From a virus (Duplodnaviria > Caudoviricetes), in IMG/VR virus record IMGVR_UViG_2808606954_000002, positions 18,730 to 82,729 of that record: a stretch of 64,000 nucleotides of DNA; one strand, given 5' to 3'. Both the position numbers and the translations under genes were made by a program. Below the pieces are notes generated by a model, which saw only the letters and a program-made list of their open reading frames with translations, made no database searches and had not been told where the DNA came from. Below are positions 14,412 through 60,645 of the stretch, in pieces (the stretch's first letter is position 1; every line of letters begins with the position of its first letter).

Positions 14412-16135
14412 TGGATCGCATCAATGGCGCGGACACTGTTGATATTGGCGGCGGCCGTCGCGGGTTTCGCGATGAAAACCTTGTGGCGGGTGTACCAGGC
14501 ACCGAGGTGACGGCAAGCTTTCTGAACGGGCTTCAGGAAGAGGTTTTGCAGGTCATCACCCAGGCGGGCCTTGCGCCGAGCAATGGCGACTGGACGCAGC
14601 TGTGGCAGGCGCTTCAGATTTTGGGGCTGTCCACGGGCGGGAAAAGTCGGCGCTGGCTGTCGGTGTTGTCGATGACGCTGTCCAGTGCGCCGGGGTCTCC
14701 AAGCGTGGGCGATGCCTATTTTATCCCTGCCGGTGCAAGCGGCATCTGGGCCGCAAACGCCGGGAAAATTGCCGAGTGGACCGGCGCGTCATGGTCCTAT
14801 CTGGCGACACCCAACGGCCATGGCTTCAGCCTGCCCGATGGACGTATTTTTGAGAAGATCAATGGCACTTATACCGAGTTGTTGGCATCTGAGACCCGTT
14901 CCGGACTGGTCGAGCTGGCAACGCCCGCCGAAGCCAAAGCCGGAACCAATAGCTTACTGGCTGTGACGCCACCCGGTCTTGTCGCAACAATCGCAGACAT
15001 CATGCCACCGAGGCCGAACCTGTGCCCGAACGGCGGGTTTGAGGATGGGCTTGCCGGGATTGAGTCGTTCAGCAACGGCGTCGCAAAAAGCTTTACAGTG
15101 TCAGATAACATGTGGGGCAGGAATCTTGTTGTATCCGGGCCGCATGCAGATGGTTGGACATCTATCGTATGGCCTAAATTCGCTGTAACTCCCGGTCTTG
15201 CTTATACAATCTCTGGTGACGCGGCTTTTTTTGCGGATGCCGGGACCGTTAAATACGAATTAATTTGGTACAGGGCCGATGGTACGGACTTAGCCTTCAG
15301 CGGCGGGGTGAAGCGCGGCACGGGCGATTTCGGTTACGCATCATCCGCACGTCAAGCCATGGCCATTTCGGTTGTCGCGCCTGCCGGAGCAGTAACAGCA
15401 AGACTAAGCTGTGTTTTCGAAAACGTAAAAAACGCAACAGTTATGTGCGCGCGGCTGGCCAAAGTCGAGTTTGGCCCGCTGCCAGCTACCGCTTATACGC
15501 CACCTACGGGTAAGTCTCGGCAGCCAGCGCTCTACACCTATGTAAACAGCGGCGTGTTTACAGCCCCAGAAGGTGTCTATTTCGTGCACCTGCGCGCTTG
15601 GGGTGGCAGCGCAGGTGGTGGCGGTGCTGGGCCAAATGGTGCAGGCGGAGGCGGCGGAGGCGGCGGTTATGCTGAGGGGATCGTAGCTGTTGTGCCGGGT
15701 CAAACATACCTGATCACGATTGGTCAAGGCGGCGCGGGCGGCGCAGCGGGTGGCGGCAAAGGCGGAGATGGTGGCACAACGTCATTTGGCTCATTGTTGA
15801 CCGCAACGGGTGGCCTTGGCGGTTACGGCGCGGCCAGTGGCTATGCAAATGGCGGCACTGGAGGTGTCGGTGTGGGCGGGCAAATACAGGTGCCTGGTCA
15901 GGCCGGACAGCGCTCTATTGCGCAACGAGACCCCATCAATGGCGACGGTATTGTTTGGGTTGGTGGCCCAGGCGGCGGGGCATTTGGGTCCGGCTCTACG
16001 CACATGCTCTATGGTTCATCCTCTGGCTGGGCCGGTTGGTCGTATGGCACCGGCGGATCAGGCGGTGCGGGCGACGGCACGAACGGTTATGCGGGTGGCG
16101 TTGGACCGTCTGGCTTCCTCGCAATCGATTTTTGA
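14411..16135 (+). CDS. Tail fibre 1 (Mu-type N-terminus, DUF2793-like segment, CBM-like domain, Gly-rich tip)
   Basis: ATG 14411 overlaps the gp48 stop; VGDAYFIPAGASG.W, GLVELAT..AVTP and NLCPNGGFE motifs; Gly-rich C-terminus. Confidence 0.85.
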   Translation: MDRINGADTVDIGGGRRGFRDENLVAGVPGTEVTASFLNGLQEEVLQVITQAGLAPSNGDWTQLWQALQILGLSTGGKSRRWLSVLSMTLSSAPGSPSVGDAYFIPAGASGIWAANAGKIAEWTGASWSYLATPNGHGFSLPDGRIFEKINGTYTELLASETRSGLVELATPAEAKAGTNSLLAVTPPGLVATIADIMPPRPNLCPNGGFEDGLAGIESFSNGVAKSFTVSDNMWGRNLVVSGPHADGWTSIVWPKFAVTPGLAYTISGDAAFFADAGTVKYELIWYRADGTDLAFSGGVKRGTGDFGYASSARQAMAISVVAPAGAVTARLSCVFENVKNATVMCARLAKVEFGPLPATAYTPPTGKSRQPALYTYVNSGVFTAPEGVYFVHLRAWGGSAGGGGAGPNGAGGGGGGGGYAEGIVAVVPGQTYLITIGQGGAGGAAGGGKGGDGGTTSFGSLLTATGGLGGYGAASGYANGGTGGVGVGGQIQVPGQAGQRSIAQRDPINGDGIVWVGGPGGGAFGSGSTHMLYGSSSGWAGWSYGTGGSGGAGDGTNGYAGGVGPSGFLAIDF

Positions 16136-16316
16136 TATTTTGAGGTATTGAGATGATAAAATATGCGCGCATACATGCTGGCATTGTCGTCGAGGTGATC
16201 GAGACTGACCACAAGATAGATGATCTCTATCACCCCGATATTGCCGCCTCATTTATGGAGGTGACGGACGATGTTGAGCCGGGCTGGACATATACAGACG
16301 GCAAGTTGGCCGCGCC
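14958..16316 (+). repeat. Direct repeat copy 1 (fibre tip plus 5' end of the next gene)
   Basis: Colinear with 59287-60645 (offset 44,329). Only C15295/T59624, G15313/A59642 and A15857/G60186 differ up to the fibre stop; identity is lower afterwards. Confidence 0.97.
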
Positions 16317-16713
16317 AGTTGTGCCATCAATACCAGCGCCGACGCTGGAAACCGTGCAGGCTGATCTGAAAGCCCGGATTGACAAACTGGCTGAGGTTGA
16401 GCGCCTGAAATACATCACAGGTGGCGTTGGGCAAGCCATGACCTATCAGCAAAAGGCGGCTGAGGCGATTGCCTATCTGGCCGCCACCAATCCGGTCGCC
16501 AAGGATTACCCTCTGCTCAGTGCTGAGGTTGGCCTGACGGGCAAAACATTGTCCGATGTTGCCACCACCGTGAAAGCGGCATTTGAGCAATGGCAGCTCA
16601 TTGGTGCCGCTGTCGAGAAAGTGCGCCTCGGTGCCAAAAAGGCAATTGGCGAGGCAAAAACATCTGAGGCAGCGCAAGCCGTCTTTGATGCTGTGGTCTG
16701 GCCATCGGCTTAA
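16153..16713 (+). CDS. Tail-fibre-associated/assembly protein 1
   Basis: Directly after the fibre; N-terminal ~56 aa homologous to 60482-60937. Confidence 0.65.
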   Translation: MIKYARIHAGIVVEVIETDHKIDDLYHPDIAASFMEVTDDVEPGWTYTDGKLAAPVVPSIPAPTLETVQADLKARIDKLAEVERLKYITGGVGQAMTYQQKAAEAIAYLAATNPVAKDYPLLSAEVGLTGKTLSDVATTVKAAFEQWQLIGAAVEKVRLGAKKAIGEAKTSEAAQAVFDAVVWPSA

Positions 16714-16747
16714 GCCGCTCAGTCATTTGAAAAATTAGGAGTCTTTC

Positions 16748-16969
16748 ATGTTCGTCAACAATTGGCGGCAAGTGCTTAAGCGCGCTTGGTCTGTCCGGCT
16801 GCTTTTGGCTGCTGGTTTCTTCTCCGGAGCTGAAGTCTTTCTGCCGCTCATCGACGGTCACATTGATATGCCGCGCGGCCTGTTTGCTGCCCTGTCCGGT
16901 TTGTCCGCAGCAGGGGCCTTTGTTTCCCGTTTTCTTGCTCAAAAGGATTTATCTGATGCCGATCAATAA
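16748..16969 (+). CDS. Holin/pinholin candidate
   Basis: 73 aa with two hydrophobic segments; NWRQVLKRAWSVR; stop overlaps the endolysin start. Confidence 0.7.
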   Translation: MFVNNWRQVLKRAWSVRLLLAAGFFSGAEVFLPLIDGHIDMPRGLFAALSGLSAAGAFVSRFLAQKDLSDADQ

Positions 16970-17546
16970 GCTTAAAGCCAGTAAGCGCGCAAAAACGGCC
17001 ATTGCTGCAATTGTGTTTGCCGCTGGCACTGGTGGGACAATCGCGCTTTTTCCGGGGCAAGAGCCAGTTCCGGCTGATGTCGCGCTTGCGATTAACGCGC
17101 TGGTAAAGCCGTGGGAAGGTCGCAGCCTCAAGGCTTATTACGATACGCTGCCCACAAGGCCAGTCTGGACGATTTGCGATGGTGATACCGATAACGTCAA
17201 GCCCGGAATGGTGGAAACCCCGCAAGGCTGTGACAAGCGGCTGGCAACCAAGATCGTGCGCGACTATCGCAAGCCTTTGACAGAGTGCATCTCTGGCTGG
17301 GACGGCAAGCCGCTGGCGTGGCGGGCGATGATGATTAGCCTGACCTGGAATATTGGCACCGGCGCTGCTTGCAGATCGACCGCTGCACGGTTGGGGCGCG
17401 AAGGCAAGTATCTGGAAAGCTGTAATGCTGCCACCGCCTTTAACCGTGCCGGTGGCCGCGTCATCATTGGTTTGGCCAAGCGGCGCGAAAACGGTGATGC
17501 GACTCGGATCGGGGAGGGAGAATTGTGCGTCTCCGGCCTGCAATGA
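16956..17546 (+). CDS. Endolysin, GH24 lysozyme family, probable SAR type
   Basis: N-terminal Ala/Gly-rich hydrophobic stretch; WEG..AYYD..WTICDGDT catalytic region; LAKRRE motif. Confidence 0.85.
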   Translation: MPINKLKASKRAKTAIAAIVFAAGTGGTIALFPGQEPVPADVALAINALVKPWEGRSLKAYYDTLPTRPVWTICDGDTDNVKPGMVETPQGCDKRLATKIVRDYRKPLTECISGWDGKPLAWRAMMISLTWNIGTGAACRSTAARLGREGKYLESCNAATAFNRAGGRVIIGLAKRRENGDATRIGEGELCVSGLQ

Positions 17547-18028
17547 GCTTGGTCGCGCTTGCGTTAAGTTGTCGCGGTGTTTTGCTAAAATGGCTGAAAA
17601 CATTTCTGGTCAATCTTTATGGCATGATCGGCATTGCCGGTTTTCTGCTGTTGGCGCTGTTGGTGTTCGAGGAGGGTGTGCCTTTCCTCGGCATCAATGG
17701 CCGGGTTGCCAATCATGCGGCCTCGCAGGTTGAGGCCGCAAAGGCGGGCTTGGTTGCGCAAGCCGATCTGGACGCTGCCAATGCCAAATTGACGGCCATG
17801 ACCTTGCGGTTACAGCAGGCGGAAATGCTGGCCGAACAGGCCCGCGCAATAGGCGAAAACATCATCAAAAAAGAAGGGCAGGTTAATGATGCGCTTAAAG
17901 CATCTGTTTCGGCTGACAATCGCGTTGATGGCGCTCGCTGGTCTGCCTCTGATATTGAGTGGCTGTCTCGCGAACGACAACGCCTCGGCCTCGCTGGCCA
18001 AGGCGGCGGCGCAAAAGGCGGTGGCTGA
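17543..18028 (+). CDS. i-spanin (Rz-like)
   Basis: N-terminal TM followed by coiled coil; after the endolysin. Confidence 0.65.
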   Translation: MSLVALALSCRGVLLKWLKTFLVNLYGMIGIAGFLLLALLVFEEGVPFLGINGRVANHAASQVEAAKAGLVAQADLDAANAKLTAMTLRLQQAEMLAEQARAIGENIIKKEGQVNDALKASVSADNRVDGARWSASDIEWLSRERQRLGLAGQGGGAKGGG

Positions 18029-18236
18029 AACAAAGGTGCCATTGCCGCCCTGGCCTGATTGGTGCAGGCAACACATGCGCCGCATCGTGCCGGTGGCTGG
18101 CGGATCGGCGGCGCATGATCAACTTGGCTGGGAGGTCAGTGCCAACCAGCAGGATGCCCGCACTGATGCGTGTGCGGAAATTTACGACACGCGGCGGGCT
18201 GAGTACGGGGGGGGCGCACATGGCACCGGAAATTGA
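17886..18236 (+). CDS. o-spanin (Rz1-like lipoprotein), overlapping Rz in another frame
   Basis: Signal peptide with LSGC lipobox; Pro-rich segment. Confidence 0.7.
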   Translation: MMRLKHLFRLTIALMALAGLPLILSGCLANDNASASLAKAAAQKAVAETKVPLPPWPDWCRQHMRRIVPVAGGSAAHDQLGWEVSANQQDARTDACAEIYDTRRAEYGGGAHGTGN

Positions 18237-18591
18237 CGCGGGTGTGCACCGGATGCTCGGTGAGCTGGTTGCAGAAATGCGCGGGCTGAAAGAAGACATT
18301 CAGGAAATTCGGGGCGCGCAAGTGCGCTCCGAGGATCGCGCAACCCAAAGCCGGGCGGTTGTGCACCGGCGCATGGATGAAATGGTGGATCGGGTTGGCG
18401 CGCTGGAAACCAACATCACCAATGTGCAGACTGATATTGCTGACATTAAGCCGGTGACCAATGAGGTCAAGCGTTGGAAGCTGATCGGCCTTGGCGCGCT
18501 CGGCATGATTGGCATCGGCGGGATCGCGCTTGGCGTATCCTTTGCTGATGTTTTGAAACGGGTTGGCGGTCTGCTGATTGGTCGGCTCTAG
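18220..18591 (+). CDS. DUF1515-like coiled-coil/TM phage protein
   Basis: RAVVHRRMDE motif and C-terminal TM; last gene of the lysis cassette. Confidence 0.6.
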   Translation: MAPEIDAGVHRMLGELVAEMRGLKEDIQEIRGAQVRSEDRATQSRAVVHRRMDEMVDRVGALETNITNVQTDIADIKPVTNEVKRWKLIGLGALGMIGIGGIALGVSFADVLKRVGGLLIGRL

Positions 18592-18614
18592 CGCATCATC
18601 AGGCAAAAGCAGAT

Positions 18615-18658
18615 AAGGCCGGAAAGTAGAATTCCGGCCTTTGCTTCTTTTCTTTTTT
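18615..18658 (+). terminator. Intrinsic terminator at the end of the late/lysis operon
   Basis: AAGGCCGGAA / TTCCGGCCTT stem followed by a T-rich tail. Confidence 0.75.
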
Positions 18659-19751: not shown

Positions 19752-20960
19752 TCAACCATGCTGCCTCCCCTCCCCTTCTCCGTTTTGCTTCAACAGCGCC
19801 ATCAGTACCGGCCCCAGCGAGAACTCGCCCGCCTGCGCCTTGGCGGTCAGGCTGCGCAAATAGCCGCCCGCAGAATTGATCTGCCCTGCCCGCTCTAAAA
19901 TACAGGCCATGGTTATCGCAGCAGCCTCCGGCCCCATGGCCTCGCAGGCCTGCTGATAGGCCGATGGGCTGACGCCAAGCATGGACCGCACCACCACGGC
20001 GGCCGCCATCAGATCGCGCCAACCGGATACCGCGCCGCCCGGTCCATAATCGCCGATCTGCGGGCAGGCTTTCAACACCATGCTTAAGGGGTAGGTTTCC
20101 GGCTTGCGCTGTTTTGCCGGTTCCAGCCGTGCCGGTTCCGCCATCATATTTTCTTGGCCGTTTAATTCAAATTCATAGGTAGATTCGGTATTTGAATTCT
20201 GTATGTGTGCGTCATTGTGGTTGGCATTGGTGGGCATTTTTTCGGATTTTAATTGCATTTCCAGCCGGTTAACGACCTCTTCGCGCAAAAGCTCCATCTC
20301 GTCGCGGATCTCCATCACCTCGCCCATGGTGGGGCGGCGCGGCAAGCGGGCGAGAATGCTGATATAATGGTCCTCGGCTGCGGACCAATTGCCCTCGGCC
20401 CCCTCCTCAATGGCGGCGGAAATCAGCTTGCGCACATCGCGGCGGCAAATGGTGAGCGCTTCCTTTGCGCGTTTATAGGCGCGGGCCTCATCGGCCACGG
20501 CTTGCGCAAGCTGGGCCAGCTCACCCGCGCGAATAAGCAGCGGTGCCAGGCTAAAGCCGAAAGCGGCTTCAATCTCACCTGCCCGGTCGCGGTGGGCGTA
20601 GCGCTTGCCGTTTGGGCTATCGCGGCGCTCAATCAACCCCGCCTCAACCAAGGCCGCCAAGGCCCGGCGCAATGTGCTGCCTGATATGCCATGCGCGCGG
20701 ATGGAAAGCTGTGCGTTGCTTGGAAACACAACAAGCCCCATGTCCTCGGAAAGTTCGGTTTCAGGATAGAAGCTCAACAGCGCATTTAAAACCGCCATGG
20801 CTCTATCTTGCAGGCCAAGCTTTTCGCGCGCTTCGCAAGCATCACGAAACACCCGCCATTTATCCACCGCCCTGCCCGGCTTTGCTTCGGCCCGTTCCAT
20901 CTGGCCTTTCACCAAAGCAAGCTTCGCCGGTCGCCGCCCAAACGGCGTCGTGATCTGCAT
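19752..20960 (-). CDS. repC: Plasmid replication initiator RepC
   Basis: MQITTPFGRR, LVFPSNAQLS, RRDSPNGKRY, FGFSLAPL and INSAGGYLR motifs; AT-rich internal tract at about 20140-20260 (RepC origins lie inside repC). Confidence 0.97.
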   Translation of the reverse strand: MQITTPFGRRPAKLALVKGQMERAEAKPGRAVDKWRVFRDACEAREKLGLQDRAMAVLNALLSFYPETELSEDMGLVVFPSNAQLSIRAHGISGSTLRRALAALVEAGLIERRDSPNGKRYAHRDRAGEIEAAFGFSLAPLLIRAGELAQLAQAVADEARAYKRAKEALTICRRDVRKLISAAIEEGAEGNWSAAEDHYISILARLPRRPTMGEVMEIRDEMELLREEVVNRLEMQLKSEKMPTNANHNDAHIQNSNTESTYEFELNGQENMMAEPARLEPAKQRKPETYPLSMVLKACPQIGDYGPGGAVSGWRDLMAAAVVVRSMLGVSPSAYQQACEAMGPEAAAITMACILERAGQINSAGGYLRSLTAKAQAGEFSLGPVLMALLKQNGEGEGRQHG

Positions 20961-21029
20961 ATGGGTCATTGCTTCCTTCACCTTTCAAAAGGCAAAAGAA
21001 ATCCGCTCACCAAATGGCGTCAAAGACTC

Positions 21030-21058
21030 TTGACTATGATTCTTGGAAATGCGATTCT
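21030..21058 (+). promoter_or_regulatory. Promoter of the repABC counter-transcribed RNA
   Basis: TTGACT-ATGATTCTTGGAAATGC-GATTCT closely resembles the conserved ctRNA promoter of repABC replicons. Confidence 0.8.
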
Positions 21059-21064
21059 CTAACT

Positions 21065-21118
21065 GCTTACATCAGAGAGGGCTTCCACGGTTCGCCGTTT
21101 GGGGGCCTTTTTCTTTTT
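21065..21118 (+). ncRNA. repABC antisense ctRNA (incA/repE type); ends approximate
   Basis: Lies in the repB-repC spacer, antisense to the operon; GGCTTCC..GGGGGCC hairpin followed by a T-tract. Confidence 0.8.
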
Positions 21119-21123
21119 GCCGG

Positions 21124-22104
21124 TCAGTTTCCTTTGTTAAACTCGTCGTACAGTTCTGGCATGCGCGTCATCAGATACTCTGCAAACGCCTCATTTTGAG
21201 TCCTGTCAATCTCAATCCTGCATTGTTTGCCTCTGAGCGCCAAGGATGCAATCTCTTGCCCGTCGCGGCTTTTGGCAATTTGTGGGGCCTCGCTCTTTGT
21301 GGCGGGCCGCTGCTTGGCAGATGCAAGCGCGGCCTTGAAGCGGTCATCTGACGATTTATGCGCAAAGGTGCTGTCTTGCGTGGCCTTGCGCACTTGCGGC
21401 TCAACCGTGCCTGATTTGAGCAGATCGGCCAGCTCTTGCCAGCGCGGGCGGCCAATCTTTGGCGCGGGGCCAATGGCCTCAATCAGCCATTGCGGCACGA
21501 CCGCAGCCACGGCAATCAGCTTTGCCGCCTCGGCCCGATCCACCGCCAAAGCCGCCTGAATGTCAGACCGCTGAAAACCCGCGCTCTCCAGCCGGTGCGC
21601 AAAGGATGCGCGCTCAATAAAGCTTAAATCCTCACGCGCCGAATTTTCCACGCCTTGCGCGATTATCAGGCTTTGGTCATCCAGATCACGCACATAGGCT
21701 TTAACCGGGATGCCTAGCTCTCTAGCTGCCTGCGCGCGGCGATGGCCGTACGCAATCTGGTAGCGGCCTTGTGCGGTTGGGTGCGGGCGCACAAGGATGG
21801 GGATTTCCTGGCCATTGTCTGACAGCGATTGCTTAAGCTGTTCAAGGGCGGCTTTGTTGCCCGATGCCAAGCGATCCGCAAAAGGTGAGGGGTCCAGATG
21901 GGCGGGGTCCAAATCAGCGGCCTGCCCACCTTGCGCAAGCAAGCGGCGCAACTCTTCGTTTTCGGCCTCGATGCTGGTGAGTGAGCCTTTCATGGCCTGC
22001 ACCGCGCCGCTTGCCACGCGCTTTGATGTGGGACGGGCTTGCGGCTCTGTGCCTTCGTCGCCAGCCTTGAACATGCCGCGAATAGAATTCATGCGCGAAC
22101 TCAT
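21124..22104 (-). CDS. repB: Plasmid partition protein RepB (ParB family)
   Basis: GQEIPILVRPHP, YQIAYGHRR and ENSAREDLSFIERA motifs. Confidence 0.95.
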   Translation of the reverse strand: MSSRMNSIRGMFKAGDEGTEPQARPTSKRVASGAVQAMKGSLTSIEAENEELRRLLAQGGQAADLDPAHLDPSPFADRLASGNKAALEQLKQSLSDNGQEIPILVRPHPTAQGRYQIAYGHRRAQAARELGIPVKAYVRDLDDQSLIIAQGVENSAREDLSFIERASFAHRLESAGFQRSDIQAALAVDRAEAAKLIAVAAVVPQWLIEAIGPAPKIGRPRWQELADLLKSGTVEPQVRKATQDSTFAHKSSDDRFKAALASAKQRPATKSEAPQIAKSRDGQEIASLALRGKQCRIEIDRTQNEAFAEYLMTRMPELYDEFNKGN

Positions 22105-22121
22105 TGGCCTGCCCCTTTCAT

Positions 22122-22139
22122 TGTTGTCAGCTGACAACA
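22122..22139. promoter_or_regulatory. parS centromere-like site
   Basis: Perfect palindrome TGTTGTCAGCTGACAACA matching GTTNNCNGCNGNNAAC, in the repA-repB spacer. Confidence 0.85.
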
Positions 22140-22168
22140 TATCAAGTGTTTGATTTTATTGATGTGGG

Positions 22169-23386: not shown

Positions 23387-23497
23387 CTCAGACGTTTCTA
23401 GCTCGTTAAACGCATTATTTCCGTTTTCAAAATGCACACGATTCTAATGTGGTTGCAAGATGTTTTTCGTAAATGAATGGTAAACGCATTGATTTGA

Positions 23498-23541
23498 CAT
23501 GAAAAAGCCGCCTCAAAGGGCGGCTTTCTCTGTTTTGGGGC
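23498..23541 (+). repeat. 44-bp direct repeat / terminator, copy 1
   Basis: CATGAAAAAGCCGCCTCAAAGGGCGGCTTTCTCTGTTTTGGGGC, identical to 24880-24923. Confidence 0.95.
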
Positions 23542-48275: not shown

Positions 48276-48283
48276 GAAAAATC

Positions 48284-51170: not shown

Positions 51171-51179
51171 GGCAAGCCG

Positions 51180-51542
51180 ATGCAAAACGAAATCTCAATT
51201 GACCTCCTCAACCCCATAACCGGCCTGCCGAACCCGGATGGTACGCCGACCACAATCACACGGGTGGTGCTGCGCGCGCCACGGCTGCGGGAATATGCGG
51301 CGATTGGTGACCTGGACAGTTATGCAAAAACAGCCGATGGCGCGATCTACATGACCGAAAATGATGGTGTGTTTGATCGCTACATCAGCGCACTTGCACA
51401 GGAGCCAAACAATCCCGCGCTTTTGAAAAACATCTCACTTGCAGACGCCATGCGGCTCAAGGATGCGCTGCGCGATTTTTTTACCAAATCCCGCGCGACG
51501 GGCCAGCCACGACCGGACGCAAGCGACAACCAGGCCTCCTGA
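51180..51542 (+). CDS. Tail assembly chaperone, with predicted -1 frameshift extension to 51664
   Basis: T7 run at 51476-51482; -1 frame open to TGA at 51662-51664. Confidence 0.75.
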   Translation: MQNEISIDLLNPITGLPNPDGTPTTITRVVLRAPRLREYAAIGDLDSYAKTADGAIYMTENDGVFDRYISALAQEPNNPALLKNISLADAMRLKDALRDFFTKSRATGQPRPDASDNQAS

Positions 51543-51672
51543 CGCGCATAGCCGATGGGCTGGTGTTTGGCCTCAAGGTGGCCAGCATTGGCGAGGTGGA
51601 TGATATGCCAATTCCCGTTTTGCTAAATTGGGCGGAACGGGCGGCGGCATGGAATAAAAGGTGAGCAAAGCT

Positions 51673-53913
51673 ATGAGCGAGAAAGTCTTATCCGCAAAGT
51701 TGGAAATCGCTGCTGTCGATAAGACCGGCAAGGTTTTCACCGACATCGGCAAAAAAATGCTCTCGATCAGTCGCTTGCAGAAATCCATCACGCAGGTGAA
51801 GGGCTTTCAGGGTTTGGAAAACCATGTCGAGAAGGCGGCGGGTGGTATTGACCGCATGACCTCCTCTGTCGAGCGACTGGCGTCGGCCCAACGGCGGGTG
51901 TCTGGTGGTGACTTTGTTGGTCTTTCGCGCGGCATGGATGCTGCCGCGCGAACGGCTGAGCGCATGGCTGGGCGGGTGGTAAAAGCCTATGACGCGCAAA
52001 CCCGGAAAGTGCATGAATTTCACGACGCGCTGAGAACCGTCGGCGGTGCTCTGGTGATCGGCGCTGGTGTTGCAACCCACAAGGTGGCCGAAAACGGGGC
52101 AGAGTTGCAGCATTCAGAGGTTGCGCTTCGCAAGGCCGGGATTTCGGAAGAGGAAATTAAAAAGGTCAAAACGGAAGCGATTGGCATTGTCAAAAACAAT
52201 CCGCAAATGACCACTGCGCAGACCTTGGAAATTTACAAGGAAGCGAGATCGGCACTTAAAACGCCAGAAGAGGCATTTGAGCTTTTACCCTTTCTCACAC
52301 GCGCTAAGGCGGTGATGGGGTCTATGGGTGTGGAGGGTGGAATTGGTGATGTGGTAAAGGGTGCGGAAAGCCTTGGCCTTGCCAATGATCATCATCGATT
52401 TGCTGCATATGTTGATGGTCAGATCAAGGCCATGGCTGTGATGGGCAAGACCATCACGCCGGAACAAATCTATGAGGCCGCCAAATATTCCAAATCGGCG
52501 GGTGCTGGCCTGAGTGATGAATTTATCAATCTGGTCATGCCTTCGCTGATTCAGGAAATGCACGGATCCTCTGCCGGTGATGCGCTGTCCATGCTGACAA
52601 AAACTTTACGCGGTGGCATGGCCAATAAGCATATGGCCGTGGAATTGCTCAATGATATCGGGCTGCTTGAGGAGCCGGATAAGATCAGACGGACATCCAC
52701 AGGCTCCATCAAGGGCTATACCGGGAAGGTGAAGGGTGACGCTCTGTTGAGCAGCGACCCGGATAAATGGTTCAACGAGGTTTTCAGGCCCTCAGCTGAA
52801 CAGGCGGGCTACAAAAACCTGACAGACCAAACCCGGCTGCTATCAATGGTCCTGCCATCCACGGCGGCCAACCTTGGCCGTATCCTATTGCAACAGCATG
52901 AGACGCTACAAAATCACCGCAAGCTTTATGAGGCTGCGCCCGGCGTTGATGGGCAGGCGGAACTTAATCGCCAAGACCCTATAGCAGCTGTTTCCGGCCT
53001 TGCGGGGTCGGTTAAAAACTTTCTCGAAATCCTCGCGTCACCAGCCATGACATCGGCTGCAACAGCGCTGGATAATGTGGCGCGGTCTATCAATGGCTTT
53101 GCTGAGAAGCTGAAGGAATGGCAGGATGCGCACCCGGAAGCCGCTAAAAATGCAGCCTATGGAACCATGGCGGTCGGCGGTGTTGTGGGTGGCACCGGCT
53201 CAATCATGGTAGCCTCACGGCTTGCGCGTGGCCTTGGCCTAATGGGTGGTGGTGCAGCTGTTGCGCCTGCCGCTGTTGCCGGTGAGGCCGGGGTGGCAGC
53301 AGGCGTTGTGCAAGCCGGTGTTGTTGCTGGGCTTGCAAGCCTTGGCGGCGCTGCGGCTGTTGCTGCCATGGCAAGTGCTGCGGCGCTTGGTCTGTTCAAG
53401 ATTTTCACATTGTCCAAAGAGCAGCGTGACGCTGAGCTGAAAGATGTGCGAGATCATTTCGAAAATCAGGATAAACGTGATCCGCTTAAGCAATATATAA
53501 ACCTTGAGAATCATCAGGGCTATATGAAAACCGCCAGCCGCAAGGATGATGATCTGTCGCCGGATGCGGCGGCGAAATGGTTATCGAAAGGTGATCGCGA
53601 AAAGCAGGAGGCTGACGCGGTTTTCAGGGAATTTGCAGATGGTCCAAGCTGGATGCGCTCAAATAGAGGTCTTCCGGTTGACGATATTGCTAACCCGGCT
53701 GATCGGCGTCGGGCTGATCCGGCTGCGGAAGCGGCCAGCATCCTGCCCGACATCAAAAACGCGCTGAATGGCGATGCGCGCATTACGGTTGAGGTCAAGC
53801 CCTCTCCCGACTTCATCACGCGCGTTGCTGATATGGTCAAATCAGGCATGTCTGGTTTTACCGTGTCCGGGCCGGGAAGTGCTGGGCAATCAGCTCCTGA
53901 TATACCTAGATAA
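51673..53913 (+). CDS. Tape measure protein
   Basis: About 750 aa, Ala/Gly-rich; IAAVDKT N-terminus; position. Confidence 0.8.
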   Translation: MSEKVLSAKLEIAAVDKTGKVFTDIGKKMLSISRLQKSITQVKGFQGLENHVEKAAGGIDRMTSSVERLASAQRRVSGGDFVGLSRGMDAAARTAERMAGRVVKAYDAQTRKVHEFHDALRTVGGALVIGAGVATHKVAENGAELQHSEVALRKAGISEEEIKKVKTEAIGIVKNNPQMTTAQTLEIYKEARSALKTPEEAFELLPFLTRAKAVMGSMGVEGGIGDVVKGAESLGLANDHHRFAAYVDGQIKAMAVMGKTITPEQIYEAAKYSKSAGAGLSDEFINLVMPSLIQEMHGSSAGDALSMLTKTLRGGMANKHMAVELLNDIGLLEEPDKIRRTSTGSIKGYTGKVKGDALLSSDPDKWFNEVFRPSAEQAGYKNLTDQTRLLSMVLPSTAANLGRILLQQHETLQNHRKLYEAAPGVDGQAELNRQDPIAAVSGLAGSVKNFLEILASPAMTSAATALDNVARSINGFAEKLKEWQDAHPEAAKNAAYGTMAVGGVVGGTGSIMVASRLARGLGLMGGGAAVAPAAVAGEAGVAAGVVQAGVVAGLASLGGAAAVAAMASAAALGLFKIFTLSKEQRDAELKDVRDHFENQDKRDPLKQYINLENHQGYMKTASRKDDDLSPDAAAKWLSKGDREKQEADAVFREFADGPSWMRSNRGLPVDDIANPADRRRADPAAEAASILPDIKNALNGDARITVEVKPSPDFITRVADMVKSGMSGFTVSGPGSAGQSAPDIPR

Positions 53914-53925
53914 AAAAGGTGAAAA

Positions 53926-55164
53926 ATGGCGCGTGATTGGTCGTCAACCCTTTGGCCTGCCTCGTTCATGGGCTTCCCGTTTCATGTGAGCCGGGATGAT
54001 CGGCAAGGCAAGCGGCGTTTAGTGGTGCATGAATTGCCACTCAATGATGTGCCGCTCATACAGGATATGGGGGCGGGTGCGACCAAGATCACGGTTGACG
54101 CCTATTTTCTGTCTGATAGCGCGGATGCACAAGCCAAGGCCTTTGAGGCCGTCTTGAAAGCGGGCGGGGTGGGGCCTCTGTCCCTGCCAACGCTTGGCAT
54201 CAAAAGCGCACGGGCGGAAGAGTGGAAGCCGTCCTTTGATGCGGAGAGGCTCGGCTATATCGGCTTTTCCATCACCTTTGTGCTTGATCCGGGTGGTTCG
54301 GCGCTCGGAAGTATCTTTTATGCGGTCGCGGAAATTTTCGCGGCGGCGGAAGGTTTGGCAAGTGTTGCAGGTGCCGTGATTGGCGCGCTGGAACTGGTCG
54401 GGCATATCGGCTCGGTGGTTGGTGCTGCGCAATCGGCGTTTGAAACCAGCCTTGCCACACTGTCAGTTATTTCAACGTCTGAAACTGTGAAAACGGACAC
54501 GCTGGCCACATTTAATTCCGGCTTGCAGACGCTCTATAATTCCACGGCCATCGGCCTGACTGCTTCGGGCGTTGACGGTGATCTTGGATCGTCGCTTGTT
54601 GATCTCGCGCGGATGCTTGGCGACGGCATGGGGGCCGATGATGCCGCCCGCGCTTTTGGCGCGTTGCTGGATAGTGAGCCAGCGTCAACGCTAACGGGGT
54701 CTGTGGCTGCGCTATCCTCTGCGCAACCATGGCTTGGCACGGTTGCGCAGCAGGCCATAAATCGCAATGCGGCGCGGTTTGATCTGGCGTTAAAACTTGC
54801 AGCCCTCGCGGCCTACGCGGAGGCAATCGGCAGGCAGGAATTTGCAAGTCGGCCTGAGGGTATCAATGCGCGGGCGCTGATGGCTGAGAGGCTGGATATT
54901 GCCCTTGCGGCGGCGGAAGGTGCGGAAATGGTCGATGTTTATGCGGCCATTGAAAGCCTGCAAGGGCAGTTGGCCGATTATCTGTCACGCAAAATCATCA
55001 CGCTTGCCCCGGTTGTTACGGTCACGGCGAATGCCAGTGTGCCAGCGCTGGTATGGGCTTGGCGGCTTTATGCCGATCCGGCGCGGGCTGATGAGCTGGT
55101 GGCGCGAAACAAGGTGATCCATCCTCTCTTTATGCCTCAAAATTTTGAGGCTCTGGAATCCTGA
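53926..55164 (+). CDS. Mu gpN-like DNA circularisation protein
   Basis: LWPASFMGFPFHV, RRLVVHE and LYADPARADEL..N..HPLF motifs. Confidence 0.9.
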   Translation: MARDWSSTLWPASFMGFPFHVSRDDRQGKRRLVVHELPLNDVPLIQDMGAGATKITVDAYFLSDSADAQAKAFEAVLKAGGVGPLSLPTLGIKSARAEEWKPSFDAERLGYIGFSITFVLDPGGSALGSIFYAVAEIFAAAEGLASVAGAVIGALELVGHIGSVVGAAQSAFETSLATLSVISTSETVKTDTLATFNSGLQTLYNSTAIGLTASGVDGDLGSSLVDLARMLGDGMGADDAARAFGALLDSEPASTLTGSVAALSSAQPWLGTVAQQAINRNAARFDLALKLAALAAYAEAIGRQEFASRPEGINARALMAERLDIALAAAEGAEMVDVYAAIESLQGQLADYLSRKIITLAPVVTVTANASVPALVWAWRLYADPARADELVARNKVIHPLFMPQNFEALES

Positions 55165-55166
55165 AA

Positions 55167-56246
55167 ATGATCAGTCTCGGCAATGCAGCCGCCCAGGCCA
55201 TAACGGTCACTGTGGGCGGCAAAACCTATGGCGGCTTTACCCGCGTTTCGGCCTCGGCCTGCCTTGATAAAGCGGCGCGGACATTTCAGCTCGTGGTGGC
55301 TGGTGAGCTGAATACTGTTGCAACAGCACGGCAATTTGCGGCGGGTACGCCGGTTGTCTTGCGCTGCAATGGAGAGGTGTGGCTGACGGGCTATGTTGAC
55401 TCTTATCGACCTCGGATAAGTGGTCGTGAGGCCTCGGTGTCGATTGCGGGTCGCTCAAAAGCGGCAGATGCGATTGACAGTGCTGTGGTGGATAAAACCA
55501 CGGGCTTTCAAGGCAAAACGCCTGTCGAGATTGCCAAGGCGCTCGACAAATTTGGCATTGGTTTTAAAGCCGTAGATGCCATGGAGGCCGTGCCGCGCTT
55601 TCACGTCACGCCGGGCGAAACCGTGTTTCAGGTTGTGGAGCGGCTGGCGCGTGATCAAGGCTATACGCTGCGCGGATTGGCGGATGGCGGCATTGAATTT
55701 TGGAACGCCAAAAAGACCACGAAGCGGCAGGCCGGGCCACTGATACAGGGCCTCAATATCCTGTCCGCAGATGCGGACCACAATTGGAGCCGCCGTCACA
55801 GCCATTACCATGTGCGCGGGCAAAGCGCCCATGGCATGGATAGTCACGCCACGGAAATGCAGGCGGTGGCGAAAGATGGCTCTGTGCAGCGTTATCGCCC
55901 AACCATGATCAATTGCGAAAACGACACCGATATCGGGCGTGTGCGCAAGCGGGCAACTCATCACCGCAACACGCGGGCAGGCCGCTCTCTCTCGGCCAAT
56001 ATTGAGGTGGTCGGCTATGTCGATCCGGGTGGCAAACTGTGGGAATGCGGCAATCTGGTTTACGTGGAAAGCCCTTTTTTAAACCTGCAACAAGACATGT
56101 TGATTGAGCAGGTCACAATCCGCGAAGACGGCGGCGGCATGACCACAAGCCTCTCGCTTTGCGACCCTGCTGCCTATTCCGGCAAAAAGCGCAAGGCCAG
56201 CAAAAGCGGCGGCGAATGGGCTGCTGAGAATGAGGAGGCAGAATGA
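55167..56246 (+). CDS. Baseplate hub (Mu gpP/gp44 family)
   Basis: GRSKAADAIDS, PGETVFQ and RYRP motifs. Confidence 0.85.
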   Translation: MISLGNAAAQAITVTVGGKTYGGFTRVSASACLDKAARTFQLVVAGELNTVATARQFAAGTPVVLRCNGEVWLTGYVDSYRPRISGREASVSIAGRSKAADAIDSAVVDKTTGFQGKTPVEIAKALDKFGIGFKAVDAMEAVPRFHVTPGETVFQVVERLARDQGYTLRGLADGGIEFWNAKKTTKRQAGPLIQGLNILSADADHNWSRRHSHYHVRGQSAHGMDSHATEMQAVAKDGSVQRYRPTMINCENDTDIGRVRKRATHHRNTRAGRSLSANIEVVGYVDPGGKLWECGNLVYVESPFLNLQQDMLIEQVTIREDGGGMTTSLSLCDPAAYSGKKRKASKSGGEWAAENEEAE

Positions 56247-56674
56247 ACCTTTTTCGGCGTGGCGTCCTCTCAGGTATTGATGTTTCCGGTGGTCAGCATC
56301 TGGCCAACCTCAAGGGATTTTACAACGAGGAGCTTGTGAATGTCCCGCGAATAAAAGAGTTCGGCTTTTCATCCAGCCCGCCTGCGGGTGCGACTGCGCT
56401 CATCATGGCCCTGAATGGGCGGGCTGACAATGCCATGGTGATGGGGCTGGATCACGGCAGCCACGGGCCGCGTGATTTGGGTGCTGGCCACACTGCCATT
56501 TACGATGCTTACGGCAATGTTGTGTCGTTGGTGCAGAACAAAGTCAGGATCGTCACGGCGGGGGCTATTGAGCTTGTCTCGGCCTCACTCACCCACAATG
56601 GCGTCAATATTGGCGCAACCCACGTCCACGGCGGCATCGTCAAGGGCGGAAGCGATACGGCGGTGCCACATTGA
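56243..56674 (+). CDS. Baseplate spike (gp45 family)
   Basis: EFGFSSSPP motif and HVHGG tip. Confidence 0.85.
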   Translation: MNLFRRGVLSGIDVSGGQHLANLKGFYNEELVNVPRIKEFGFSSSPPAGATALIMALNGRADNAMVMGLDHGSHGPRDLGAGHTAIYDAYGNVVSLVQNKVRIVTAGAIELVSASLTHNGVNIGATHVHGGIVKGGSDTAVPH

Positions 56675-57186
56675 TGTTGCGGGTGAGGATTAATGAGAGT
56701 GCGCGGACACAACCCGCGCTGCTGTGGGATACCGCGTGGGATGCTGCTGCGCGGTCTGGCAATTGGGTGCTTGTCGGTGGTGGTTTGCAGGCTGACAATC
56801 AGCTCCAAACCGCTGTTGTGTTGGCACTGTTTACCGACAGGCGCTGCCCACCTGATCACCCCTTGGCAAAATATGTCGAGGATGGTGACTTGCGCGGTTG
56901 GTGGGGCGATGGCGTGGATGTGCGCTCCGATCTGAGCGAGACGGAAATGGGGTCTTTGCTTTGGCTGCTGGAGCGCATGCCCCTCACCGATCAAACTGTG
57001 ATGTGGGCGCAAAGCCTTGCCGCTGAGGCGGTGCAGCCGCTTGTTGATCAGGGGGCTGTCGCAAAGGCTGTGGTGACGGCTGAGAAGGCCGATCACCGCA
57101 TCAATCTGGCCATCAATCTCTATGCGCGCGACGGCTCAAAAGCCTTTGCGCAACAATTCGACGTTTATTGGCGCTCGATCGGATAG
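56674..57186 (+). CDS. gp46-like baseplate protein
   Basis: LFTDRR, RGWWGD and GSLLWLLER motifs. Confidence 0.88.
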   Translation: MLRVRINESARTQPALLWDTAWDAAARSGNWVLVGGGLQADNQLQTAVVLALFTDRRCPPDHPLAKYVEDGDLRGWWGDGVDVRSDLSETEMGSLLWLLERMPLTDQTVMWAQSLAAEAVQPLVDQGAVAKAVVTAEKADHRINLAINLYARDGSKAFAQQFDVYWRSIG

Positions 57187-57189
57187 ATT

Positions 57190-58305
57190 ATGCTTACAAT
57201 TCCATCACTTAGCGAACTGGCCGAACAGATGCGCCAGAAGTTTCGCACTTATCTGCCCGGCTCTGATGCGTGGGTTTGGCCCAACAATGTCGGGGTCACG
57301 GCCAAGGTTTTGGCAGGGGGCTTGTATGCCCTGTATGCCAAGCTCGAATATGTCGAGCGGCAAGCCTTTGTGGTGACGGCTGAGGGTGAATATCTTCAGC
57401 GGCATGGCTCGGCGGTTGGTGTCAATATCCGGGCGGCATCACAGGCAAGAGGAAAAGTTGTCGTCACAGTGGATGGCGCAGCCTCTCTTGCGGCGGGCGC
57501 GATCCTTCAGCGTTCGGACGGTGTGCAGTTTTCGGTTCTGTCGGCTGATGCTCTGTTGGCGGCTGGAAATATGACTGTGCCTGTGCAGGCCCTGCTGGGT
57601 GGCGCAACAGGCACCACGCTTGCGGGCACTGGTTTGACCATTGTGTCAGGCTTGACCTTTGTGAGTGGCAGCGGTGTTGCAACAGCGGCGGTTGATGCAG
57701 CTGGCCTATCAGGCGGCTCGGATGTTGAGGATGTTGAGACTTTTCGCGCGCGAATCCTGTTTCGCAAGCGCCACCCCTATTCGGGTGGTGCTGCGGCGGA
57801 TTATGTCAGCTGGGCCATGAATGTGCCGGGCGTTACGCGAGTCTATGTTGAGCGGTTGTGGGCTGGCCCCGGAACCGTGCGCGTTTTCCCGGTCACGGAT
57901 GGTTTGACGCCGGGCGGTATCCCGTCGGCGGCAACGCTAAAGGCGGTCGAAAATGCGATAGCCCTTGAAGCACCGGCTGGTGCTGCGGTGACGGTTGCGG
58001 CTCCCACGCCAAAGACAATCAATCTGACAATCACCGATCTCCAGCCGTCCACCACGGCGGTGCAAGAGGCTGTGAAATCTGCGCTGGCGCAAGGCCTCAT
58101 AGATCATGGCGCGATTGCCGGATCGGACACGCCTGTCGCGGGCATGGATTTTCTGGCAACGCCGCGCAGCTTTTCGCGCTCATGGCTGTGGCAGGCTGTG
58201 GCCAATGCCAGTGGCAGTCAAAGGCATGTTCTGACGGTTCCGACTGCGGATGTGCCTTTGGCGGTGGGTGAAATGCCAGTGCTTGGCACAGTTAATTTTG
58301 CGTGA
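57190..58305 (+). CDS. Baseplate J-like protein (gp47)
   Basis: AEGEYLQRHG and GGAAADYVSWA..VPGV.R motifs. Confidence 0.9.
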   Translation: MLTIPSLSELAEQMRQKFRTYLPGSDAWVWPNNVGVTAKVLAGGLYALYAKLEYVERQAFVVTAEGEYLQRHGSAVGVNIRAASQARGKVVVTVDGAASLAAGAILQRSDGVQFSVLSADALLAAGNMTVPVQALLGGATGTTLAGTGLTIVSGLTFVSGSGVATAAVDAAGLSGGSDVEDVETFRARILFRKRHPYSGGAAADYVSWAMNVPGVTRVYVERLWAGPGTVRVFPVTDGLTPGGIPSAATLKAVENAIALEAPAGAAVTVAAPTPKTINLTITDLQPSTTAVQEAVKSALAQGLIDHGAIAGSDTPVAGMDFLATPRSFSRSWLWQAVANASGSQRHVLTVPTADVPLAVGEMPVLGTVNFA

Positions 58306-58311
58306 GGTGCT

Positions 58312-58935
58312 ATGGCTCAAGGTAACATATGCCCCGGCCTTGATGAGCTGATGCAAAGCCTTCTGGCTCTTTTGCCGCGTGGTCGCGCCTGGGGTGATAA
58401 CCACGCTGACACCTCACCGATTTATCGCTTCTGGCGATCCGTTGCCGCCTGCTTTTACGATTGGGAATTGCTGGCTTGCGCGTTGATTGAAGAGTTTTTC
58501 CCGTCAACCGCAAGAGCAACGCTTGACCTTTGGTATGCCGATTATGGTTTGCCAGATGGTTGCGACCCATACCCCAATCTCGTCGCCAAAGTGCGGGCGG
58601 CGGGCGGCTCAACATGCAGTTATTTTCAGGCCGTTGCTGCGGCGGCGGGCTGGTCCATTGCCTGTATGGCAGATCAAACACAGAGTGCTGGCCTTGCGTC
58701 AGCAGGTTGTAGTCAGGTGGGGCAAGGCATCCCGGCCTGTACATTGCTGATCCGCGTTTATCTTTCGCAGTCCCGTGCTTACAACGCGGCCAGCACACAG
58801 CTTGCAGCCATTGCTGGCTCAAATTGGACCGTCGGCGGCACACTTGGCTGCGGTCCCGATCTTACCCCCCTTTTTTGCCTGATGGCGCGGATGATACCCG
58901 CCCATCTGGCCGTTATCTATGAGGTTGTACCATGA
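58312..58935 (+). CDS. gp48-like baseplate protein
   Basis: LLALLPRGRAW, W.ADYGLPD.C and IPAH motifs. Confidence 0.85.
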   Translation: MAQGNICPGLDELMQSLLALLPRGRAWGDNHADTSPIYRFWRSVAACFYDWELLACALIEEFFPSTARATLDLWYADYGLPDGCDPYPNLVAKVRAAGGSTCSYFQAVAAAAGWSIACMADQTQSAGLASAGCSQVGQGIPACTLLIRVYLSQSRAYNAASTQLAAIAGSNWTVGGTLGCGPDLTPLFCLMARMIPAHLAVIYEVVP

Positions 58936-60464
58936 CGGATATTCTTGGTCCCGGCTCCAATGCCATGAATGTGGTAACAAGCCGCCCGGACGATAAGCGG
59001 ATAATGGGCCTGACAGACACCTGGTTCAAAAACTGCTCAAGCCCGGCGAATAACGATGGCACACGCATTGATGCCGACTGGCTGAATGGGCTGGTCGCAA
59101 ACCTGCGCGCGTTGGTGCGAAATTCAGGTGTAACGGTTGATCCGCTTGCAGACGATATGTTGTGGCAGGCACAAAAATTCTGGCTCGACAAAAAGGTTGA
59201 TATTGATCGCAAGGCCACAACTGACCAAACAGGCATTGTTGAGCTGGCAACCATCCCTGAAGCCAAAGAAGGCAAGAATGGACAGTTGGCTGTGACGCCA
59301 CCCGGTCTTGTCGCAACAATCGCAGACATCATGCCACCGAGGCCGAACCTGTGCCCGAACGGCGGGTTTGAGGATGGGCTTGCCGGGATTGAGTCGTTCA
59401 GCAACGGCGTCGCAAAAAGCTTTACAGTGTCAGATAACATGTGGGGCAGGAATCTTGTTGTATCCGGGCCGCATGCAGATGGTTGGACATCTATCGTATG
59501 GCCTAAATTCGCTGTAACTCCCGGTCTTGCTTATACAATCTCTGGTGACGCGGCTTTTTTTGCGGATGCCGGGACCGTTAAATACGAATTAATTTGGTAC
59601 AGGGCCGATGGTACGGACTTAGCTTTCAGCGGCGGGGTGAAACGCGGCACGGGCGATTTCGGTTACGCATCATCCGCACGTCAAGCCATGGCCATTTCGG
59701 TTGTCGCGCCTGCCGGAGCAGTAACAGCAAGACTAAGCTGTGTTTTCGAAAACGTAAAAAACGCAACAGTTATGTGCGCGCGGCTGGCCAAAGTCGAGTT
59801 TGGCCCGCTGCCAGCTACCGCTTATACGCCACCTACGGGTAAGTCTCGGCAGCCAGCGCTCTACACCTATGTAAACAGCGGCGTGTTTACAGCCCCAGAA
59901 GGTGTCTATTTCGTGCACCTGCGCGCTTGGGGTGGCAGCGCAGGTGGTGGCGGTGCTGGGCCAAATGGTGCAGGCGGAGGCGGCGGAGGCGGCGGTTATG
60001 CTGAGGGGATCGTAGCTGTTGTGCCGGGTCAAACATACCTGATCACGATTGGTCAAGGCGGCGCGGGCGGCGCAGCGGGTGGCGGCAAAGGCGGAGATGG
60101 TGGCACAACGTCATTTGGCTCATTGTTGACCGCAACGGGTGGCCTTGGCGGTTACGGCGCGGCCAGTGGCTATGCAAATGGCGGCGCTGGAGGTGTCGGT
60201 GTGGGCGGGCAAATACAGGTGCCTGGTCAGGCCGGACAGCGCTCTATTGCGCAACGAGACCCCATCAATGGCGACGGTATTGTTTGGGTTGGTGGCCCAG
60301 GCGGCGGGGCATTTGGGTCCGGCTCTACGCACATGCTCTATGGTTCATCCTCTGGCTGGGCCGGTTGGTCGTATGGCACCGGCGGATCAGGCGGTGCGGG
60401 CGACGGCACGAACGGTTATGCGGGTGGCGTTGGACCGTCTGGCTTCCTCGCAATCGATTTTTGA
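58932..60464 (+). CDS. Tail fibre 2 (own N-terminus, tip shared with fibre 1)
   Basis: From LAVTPPGL onward identical to fibre 1 except one T/A residue. Confidence 0.88.
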   Translation: MTDILGPGSNAMNVVTSRPDDKRIMGLTDTWFKNCSSPANNDGTRIDADWLNGLVANLRALVRNSGVTVDPLADDMLWQAQKFWLDKKVDIDRKATTDQTGIVELATIPEAKEGKNGQLAVTPPGLVATIADIMPPRPNLCPNGGFEDGLAGIESFSNGVAKSFTVSDNMWGRNLVVSGPHADGWTSIVWPKFAVTPGLAYTISGDAAFFADAGTVKYELIWYRADGTDLAFSGGVKRGTGDFGYASSARQAMAISVVAPAGAVTARLSCVFENVKNATVMCARLAKVEFGPLPATAYTPPTGKSRQPALYTYVNSGVFTAPEGVYFVHLRAWGGSAGGGGAGPNGAGGGGGGGGYAEGIVAVVPGQTYLITIGQGGAGGAAGGGKGGDGGTTSFGSLLTATGGLGGYGAASGYANGGAGGVGVGGQIQVPGQAGQRSIAQRDPINGDGIVWVGGPGGGAFGSGSTHMLYGSSSGWAGWSYGTGGSGGAGDGTNGYAGGVGPSGFLAIDF

Positions 60465-60645
60465 TTTTTTGAGGTGTTGAGATGATAAAATATGCGCGCA
60501 CACATGCTGGCGTTGTCGTCGAGGTGATCGAGACAGACCAGCCGATTGACGATCTGTACCACCCCGATATTACCGCCTCATTTATGGAGGTGACGGACGA
60601 TGTTGAGCCGGGATGGACCTATACAGACGGCAAGTTGGCCGCGCC
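59287..60645 (+). repeat. Direct repeat copy 2
   Basis: See 14958-16316. Confidence 0.97.

Follow-up and report, generated by a model that had tools for sequence, protein, structure and literature searches.

How does a complete phage-plasmid come to lie inside another prophage? This question is raised by a 64,000-nucleotide stretch of virus DNA (the window), which covers positions 18730-82729 of the 82,729-bp IMG/VR virus record IMGVR_UViG_2808606954_000002. As assembled, the locus consists of a complete 44-kb phage-plasmid which is located between direct repeats in a Mu-like prophage, and this is the product expected of one homologous crossover. The direct repeats are two copies of a tail fibre tip.

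When the window is compared with itself (blastn), a single long direct repeat is found, 14909-16345 versus 59238-60674. Its 1,437 bp align with 46 mismatches and without gaps (96.8% identity) and the two copies start 44,329 bp apart, in agreement with the original prediction, which had noticed two direct copies of a fibre 3′ segment at this distance with different neighbours. Indeed, no more than 50 bp past both ends the identity is at the chance level of 18-38%. The mismatches are distributed very unevenly. The core of the repeat (14958-16136, 1,179 bp; 59287-60465 in copy 2) has only three of them (at 15295, 15313 and 15857), is 99.75% identical and contains identical runs of 337, 543 and 279 bp. 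The edges are diverged, with 17 mismatches in the first 49 bp (14909-14957) and 26 in the last 209 bp (16137-16341). In terms of genes, each copy takes up the final 419 codons of a fibre gene and continues through the first ~64 codons of the gene behind it (16153-16713 and 60482-60937, respectively); the C-termini encoded by these following genes are unrelated to each other. The repeat is the sole long sequence common to both phages. Ahead of its two copies tails A and B are syntenic, yet their proteins are only 25-29% identical. A near-identical receptor-binding tip is carried here on two otherwise distant tails, and this is a clear case of a very recent exchange of a host-range module between a transposable phage and a phage-plasmid.

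As a separate observation, the two closest A-type tails (80-93% aa identity; IMGVR_UViG_2864993140_000001 and IMGVR_UViG_2864993140_000002) stem from one genome, and both of these contigs end in the fibre gene near the start of the tip. This suggests that there, too, a repeated fibre tip interrupted the assembly.

The outer element is a transposable phage of the Mu-like type, and a lysis cassette of its own precedes the head genes. A MuA-type transposase and a MuB-type ATPase are encoded beside the repressor (phrog_310, 1.4e-154, and phrog_296, 7.5e-71), and the Pfam families HTH_Tnp_Mu_2, DDE_2, Mu-transpos_C and Phage-MuB_C are found in genes of this element. The early and middle genes are located in the 18.7 kb ahead of the window and code for an S24 repressor, a Ner-like helix-turn-helix protein, a ParB-like protein, MuA, MuB, GemA and a Mor-like activator. 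Lysis cassette 1, upstream of the heads, consists of an M15 peptidase endolysin, a holin-like open reading frame (ORF) and an Rz-like spanin. It is followed by the terminase subunits TerS and TerL, the portal and MuF, and the window then continues with the heads and a Mu-type tail. The late genes have the Mu-type order, with the Pfam families DNA_circ_N, GpP-like, Phage_Mu_Gp45, GP46, Baseplate_J and Phage_Mu_Gp48. From the repressor to a DNA adenine methyltransferase (Dam) near the right side, the composite measures ~79 kb. If 44,329 bp are subtracted, at least 34.5 kb remain, which is the usual size of a Mu-like phage.

The inner element is a phage-plasmid of the repABC type which lacks an integrase and combines a lambda-gpA-type head with a Mu-type tail. 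Read circularly across the repeat, the insert is a complete 44.3-kb phage with genes for packaging, head, tail, lysis and immunity (Table 1); the lysis genes count as a module of the insert only when the element is read as such a circle. These genes, lysis cassette 2, begin 34 bp past the preceding gene and there is no convincing terminator between the two (one weak hairpin match, 16796-16811). The repC and repB genes share 82% nt identity with plasmids of Agrobacterium vitis. Among the ORFs of the insert that were scanned, that is, all but a few of less than 130 aa, none matches an integrase or recombinase. Homology is therefore the only visible route of the insert into the chromosome. We searched phage records, PLSDB, IMG/VR, species genomes, metagenome contigs and, from the genus whose RpoD is most similar, 61 genomes, and found no close relative of the phage-plasmid, be it free or integrated. 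Thus, the free 44.3-kb replicon which the original prediction proposed to look for in related strains did not turn up in these collections. The best matches reach only ~50% aa identity for a baseplate gene, 44% for TerL and 59% for RepC.

Two observations on the insert may be added. The repressor of 477 aa has ~245 extra N-terminal residues without a family match. Furthermore, two 76-bp direct repeats with 87% identity (23466-23541 and 24848-24923) are found 1.4 kb apart beside the HicB gene, each with a strong GC-rich hairpin.

The genes downstream of the two repeat copies appear to have changed places. Behind the Mu-type tail we find a lysis cassette, whereas the tail of the phage with the lambdoid head is followed by a D12-class Dam-like methylase and not by lysis genes, just as had been predicted. 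It had also been argued that Mu-like phages carry their lysis genes before the heads and a modification gene after the fibres. The outer element conforms to the first part of this rule with its own upstream cassette, and its relatives to the second: the order tail, fibre, chaperone, Dam is present in 16 Mu-like IMG/VR loci with A-type tails (11 + 5; 50-67% aa identity), in most of which the record ends not far from Dam. All 31 loci with B-type tails (~50% aa identity) lack this Dam in the 10 kb downstream.

The lineage of both blocks can be followed by their similarity to two other records. The record G002 contains two Mu-like prophages in tandem, and the first of these is the one most closely related to the Mu-like left arm, with 84% aa identity in MuA and 76-81% nt identity in the early region. 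Beyond this arm, G002 resembles the window in two segments only, namely 60936-61867, which comprises Dam and its upstream spacer (81% nt identity), and 61942-62383 (77%, past the Dam of G002). This supports the assignment of the Dam block to the Mu-like lineage. In turn, the segment 16729-18642, which holds lysis cassette 2 and the spacer ahead of it, has 80% nt identity to G001. This phage record of 43.8 kb encodes a gpA-type terminase, has no match to MuA and likewise carries the cassette after the fibre genes; the similarity supports an origin of lysis cassette 2 from a non-Mu lineage. The lineage assignment switches exactly at the two repeats. We add that G002 is an 84-kb IMG/VR provirus record and that its MuA genes, at 6608-8671 and 47876-49849, encode proteins with 84% and 51% identity to the MuA described here.

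A further match concerns the gene which follows fibre B. The C-domain of protein 60482 together with the downstream spacer (60664-61086) is 86.5% identical (nt) to the locus L209 (10454-11914). Thus, the junction of this C-domain with a probable DNA-modification module recurs elsewhere. L209 belongs to a phage with a P2-type tail from a related genome; there, a gene for a Com-like zinc ribbon comes next after the C-domain and the spacer, and then an ORF of at least 367 aa with GNAT and ATPase-like domains. The gene with the GNAT domain may be Mom-like, and the two genes are possibly a Mom-like DNA-modification module.

Could these be simply two independent integrated elements side by side, of which one received the fibre tip of the other by gene conversion while the downstream blocks were never exchanged? 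Tandem prophages do occur in this group, since G002 contains two Mu-like prophages in a row, and exchange of fibre tips is common among co-resident phages (PMC10879196). In such an arrangement, however, the Mu-like phage would be left without Dam and its right-end module, and the phage-plasmid would have neither lysis genes behind its tail nor a function for integration. Moreover, the repeats coincide with both boundaries at which the lineage switches. We therefore regard this arrangement as very improbable.

The repeat and the lineage of both blocks taken together mean that one crossover would restore both a Mu-like prophage (fibre, protein 60482, Dam) and a circle (tail, fibre, chaperone, lysis, terminator). 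This supports the proposal that a single exchange within the repeat swaps the downstream blocks back: Dam is the block that matches G002, and lysis cassette 2 the one that matches G001. To the outer element, which has its own endolysin and spanin cassette upstream, lysis cassette 2 is surplus.

The explanation we favour, at slightly less than even confidence, is that a circular phage-plasmid of 44,329 bp recombined once with the Mu-like prophage and that the cointegrate was present in the cell, possibly in equilibrium with the free form. The insertion might have proceeded as follows. RecA-type homologous recombination would take place inside the ~1.2-kb near-identical fibre tip common to both phages. 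The product would have the order of a Campbell-type insertion, beginning with the left arm and tail of the Mu-like phage, the N-terminus of fibre A, the repeat, the C-domain of the plasmid chaperone, lysis, repABC and immunity. Then would come the head and tail of the plasmid, the N-terminus of fibre B, the second copy of the repeat, the C-domain of the Mu chaperone, Dam and the Mu right arm. Each fibre gene would thereby end up beside the chaperone C-domain of the other phage. The joined form might be present in only a part of the population and a second crossover could undo the insertion.

For both phages the insertion would have consequences for packaging. At ~79 kb the composite would be longer than a Mu-type headful, so that the Mu-like phage could not package both its ends and should be non-viable as long as the plasmid is inserted. 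A headful begun at the left end would extend into the lysis genes and repABC and fall short of the right end. For the phage-plasmid, in turn, packaging from cos to cos would require a circular genome, which it would have to recover by the reverse crossover.

The roles of the two elements could also be reversed. In this case the Mu-like phage would be the inner element, transposed into the other phage with the ends AAAGC|TG (contig position 1781) and CA|AAAGC (window position 18604); lysis cassette 2 would belong to the Mu-like phage and the repeat would be left from a past gene exchange. A 5-bp direct repeat indeed flanks TG and CA, 35,554 bp apart, and Mu-like phages insert almost at random, other mobile elements included. 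We nevertheless rejected these ends. They have no common terminal inverted repeat, and the homology to the non-Mu record G001 continues unbroken through 16729-18642 and thus across the proposed right end at 18604. The left end would be only 37 bp away from the stop codon of the repressor, which leaves no room for transposase-binding sites. A 5-bp match is expected by chance, as at least 12 TG/CA pairs with a perfect 5-bp match are present in the outer flanks (contig positions -3700 to 1817 against 80600 to 83100). In addition, this Mu-like phage would differ from its relatives in having a second lysis cassette and lacking Dam, and the integrase-less outer phage would still need a route into the chromosome flanked by RpoD and MetH. 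A transposition of the Mu-like phage into the phage-plasmid is therefore highly unlikely.

Much harder to weigh is a mis-join by the assembler. Here, the cell would contain a free 44.3-kb circle and an uninterrupted Mu-like prophage; the assembler would have threaded the loop via the collapsed repeat and polishing would have restored the copy-specific bases near the flanks. We consider this a serious possibility, only somewhat short of an even chance. The virus record is part of contig VIVD01000003.1 (568,017 bp), which is one contig of the multi-contig draft assembly GCA_007993855.1. The contigs of the strain's own run SRR9004765 assembled at k=31 are identical to the NCBI contig wherever they overlap, and they are free of errors, as would be expected from accurate short reads. 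They stop within both repeat edges (window positions ~16255 and 60584) as well as at a palindrome in the left flank; ending inside the repeat edges, they carry no linkage information. The identical runs of 543, 337 and 279 bp are longer than the usual k-mer sizes and near to insert sizes. Both reconstructed parents are complete and look functional, and this is the natural state to be expected. Finally, repABC replicons are usually maintained near unit copy, and with near-unit copy number an unrolling of the loop based on read depth would favour a single pass.

On the other hand, a collapsed repeat which is passed twice normally gives identical copies, but here the copies differ at three positions in the core and at 43 in the edges. 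Common short-read assemblers usually break at an unresolved repeat of 1.2 kb and do not thread a 43-kb loop; the behaviour expected here would be a contig break. The proteins of the insert which we looked up are each found on one contig of the assembly only (VIVD01000003.1). A separate plasmid contig with these proteins is not on record, and this is predicted by the cointegrate as well as by the mis-join.

In favour of a cointegrate in the cell we note that the flanks of the insert are partner-specific and that the direct repeats bound exactly one complete phage-plasmid. In the single recorded assembly, the contig which carries the insert also carries chromosomal flanks, namely rpoD, a GGDEF/EAL gene and yjbQ to the left of the record and a SIMPL gene, two Omp25/31-type porins and metH to the right.

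Several points, however, weigh against a cointegrate of this kind. The mismatches of the core lie at most ~360 bp from a unique flank, and could be phased by short read pairs that carry no information across the 543-bp run. A free plasmid and an intact prophage give the assembly graph of the cointegrate if the reads do not span the 1.2-kb core. Intramolecular excision is generally expected to outpace integration, and it would take selection or chance to make a cointegrate the main form. The assignment of the blocks also has its limits. Homologues of the C-domain of protein 16153 (44-64% identity, in many phages) precede either Dam or an endolysin, and those with 55-64% identity stand beside Dam in Mu-like relatives. 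As both contexts are seen, this C-domain (16346-16713) does not mark a lineage and we dropped the chaperone C-domains as lineage markers. Likewise, G001 and the Agrobacterium plasmid pAtCFBP5507b each have Dam after the lysis genes. Dam alone is thus not diagnostic; what counts is the similarity to G002 including the spacer. Lastly, in an exhaustive scan no TG...CA pair rose above background in having both an inverted repeat and a 5-bp duplication. A convincing Mu terminus was found neither by local alignment of the left with the inverted right flank, nor in the sequence after Dam in 80 relatives, nor in two complete relatives. The position of the Mu right end, and with it the location inside a Mu prophage, therefore rests on synteny with the relatives.

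Of the original prediction of a phage-in-phage cointegrate, then, the structure stands, with a Mu-like outer and an integrase-less repABC inner element. The join in the cell is more doubtful, given the draft contig, the identical runs of up to 543 bp and the break of the k=31 contigs at the repeat.

If the cointegrate is real, it could also be reversible and of use to the phage-plasmid. A unit-copy phage-plasmid would move in and out via the receptor-binding tip, silence its Mu-like competitor by bringing it to twice its length, more than a headful, and swap chaperone C-domains; this is a tentative suggestion, and we would rather doubt it than rely on it. With the same reserve, the phage-plasmid could ride in the chromosome without an integrase, and the 99.75% identical core within diverged edges could be the trace of repeated rounds of exchange.

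Table 1. Features of the window. Positions are those of the 64,000-nucleotide window.
Feature	Position	Strand	Remarks
Mu-like late region: heads, sheath 4064-5554, tube, tape measure 6625-9186, gp43-48-type baseplate, N-terminus of fibre A	1-14908	+	PHROG, Pfam, synteny with 60-93% identical Mu-like tails
Repeat copy 1	14909-16345	+	C-terminal 419 codons of fibre A (gene 14348-16135) and start of next gene
Fibre-associated protein 1, 186 aa, putative chaperone	16153-16713	+	N-terminus in repeat; C-domain from 16346
Lysis cassette 2: DUF7940 holin-like 16748-16969, Phage_lysozyme/GH24-type endolysin 16956-17546, 161-aa ORF 17543-18028, DUF1515 18166-18591	16748-18591	+	
Bidirectional terminator-like hairpin	18615-18641	.	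closes the tail-to-lysis operon
repABC replicon: RepC 19752-20969, RepB 21124-22104, RepA 22169-23380	19752-23380	-	
Early/accessory region: HicB antitoxin 23551-23976, DUF5131, antiterminator 38647-39585	23551-40561	.	
CI/S24-type repressor, 477 aa	32614-34047	-	
Two DNA methyltransferases	35265-36758, 37042-37701		
O-like replication initiator	37575-38966		
Late region: TerS, gpA-type TerL 41230-43452, lambda-type portal 43713-45290, ClpP-capsid fusion 45196-47262, decoration protein	40698-59237	+	
Tail B: sheath 49207-50745, tube, tape measure 51661-53913, gp43-48-type baseplate, N-terminus of fibre B	within 40698-59237	+	
Repeat copy 2	59238-60674	+	C-terminal part of fibre B (gene 58932-60464) and start of next gene
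Fibre-associated protein 2, 151 aa	60482-60937	+	C-domain unlike that of protein 16153
D12-class DNA adenine methyltransferase (Dam)	61077-61889	+	assigned to the Mu-like right-end module
Post-Dam region: CTTCAAA array 61895-61983, small ORF 62113-62334, terminator-like hairpin ~62360-62385	61895-62385	+	hairpin spotted by eye, absent from the list of the hairpin scan

Some features of the outer parts of the element bear on the ends of the Mu-like phage. CTTCAAA arrays are found after Dam here and in the relatives L034 and L035, and similar arrays also to the left of the element at contig positions -3050 to -2017 (L162:13720-14750). It is possible that these arrays are transposase-binding sites or remnants of older right ends. 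A CTTCAAA/TTTGAAG array is also present in G002 (42705-43480). A 12-mer inverted match in G004 and G005 was tried as a Mu end and dropped because it sits in conserved coding-like sequence. On the left side the homology to G002 ends exactly at the stop codon of the repressor, where G002 has another block of low G+C; the Mu left end may therefore be located past the gene cluster found there. This cluster of low G+C (41-43%) abuts the Mu repressor, is of the ABC-3C type and consists of three genes (a hydrolase with CTD9, MC5 and an AAA_23 ATPase; L001:504-1700, minus strand, and L162:10001-13621). Its position may be a variable slot for cargo or defence genes at the Mu left end.

The far flanks have a G+C content of 54-57%, similar to the phages, and short islands of 41-47% adjoin the phage genes on either side. 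In the left host flank a perfect palindrome with an 18-bp stem is found at contig positions -2944 to -2897 (L162 ~14598-14645), and k=31 contigs of two different samples end there. The second sample is also without a 52-bp hairpin element which is present in the contig analysed here. Concerning the empty site, proteins of both host flanks were matched in two other samples, but only on contigs of 1.4-2.6 kb which end short of the element.

What would follow from either outcome? If the join is true, an integrase-less phage-plasmid can become chromosomal by way of a host-range gene homologous to that of a resident prophage, the kind of gene which temperate phages swap most often, and one prophage can disable another by insertion. 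This would help to account for integrated phage-plasmids whose published descriptions give no mechanism. Should the join be an artefact, the locus is a warning that phage-plasmids threaded into prophages via shared cassettes enter public assemblies and provirus catalogues, the 82.7-kb record being an example, and that such threading inflates the number of calls of "giant" or "chimeric" prophages.

The insertion of plasmids into the chromosome by homology, and its reversal, is classical: Hfr strains are formed by the F plasmid via shared insertion sequences, and rhizobial replicons form cointegrates via repeats. repABC replicons tolerate Campbell-type cointegration. As in these cases, a circular replicon would enter here by one reciprocal crossover, be flanked by direct copies and leave by the reverse crossover. 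In contrast to them, the shared segment is the receptor-binding tip of a phage and not an insertion sequence, the partner is a transposable prophage and the plasmid is itself a complete phage.

The outer element resembles Mu and BcepMu-type phages, with the transposase and B on the left, lysis before the heads, then the tail, the fibre with a fibre-assembly gene and a modification gene on the right. The right end of phage Mu itself contains the invertible S/U fibre segment, gin and com-mom. Different from Mu, a Dam-type methylase takes the place of Mom, no invertase is seen and 44 kb of another phage separate the fibre from the modification gene.

Phage-plasmids of the repABC type are known in Alphaproteobacteria, namely pLM21S1 of Sinorhizobium sp. 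LM21 (PMC5537653) and those of Roseobacter (bioRxiv 10.1101/2022.11.02.514943). With these and with Agrobacterium pAtCFBP5507b (NZ_CP109971.1) the inner element shares the combination of structural and lysis genes with RepC/RepABC or ParA/ParB maintenance and the lack of an integrase. However, pLM21S1 has 117.5 kb and its structural genes are unrelated to those of the element described here. Closer in its layout is pAtCFBP5507b, a 46-kb circle with a gpA-type terminase (44% aa identity) and a contractile tail followed by lysis genes and then Dam, which differs in the P2 order of its tail and in having a ParA system in place of repABC.

Chromosomal phage-plasmids have been described by Pfeifer and Rocha (2024; PMC10879196), who report 12 integrated P1-like regions and discuss integration as a fate of phage-plasmids; the route of integration was left open, and Cre-lox or a transposable element were suggested. 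The locus analysed here is similar in that a phage-plasmid lineage is present as a chromosomal element. Unlike the P1-like cases, the phage-plasmid is of the repABC type and from an alphaproteobacterium, and, judging by the repeats, the route would be homology to a resident prophage. What sets this locus apart is that the homology is a host-range determinant which a transposable phage also carries.

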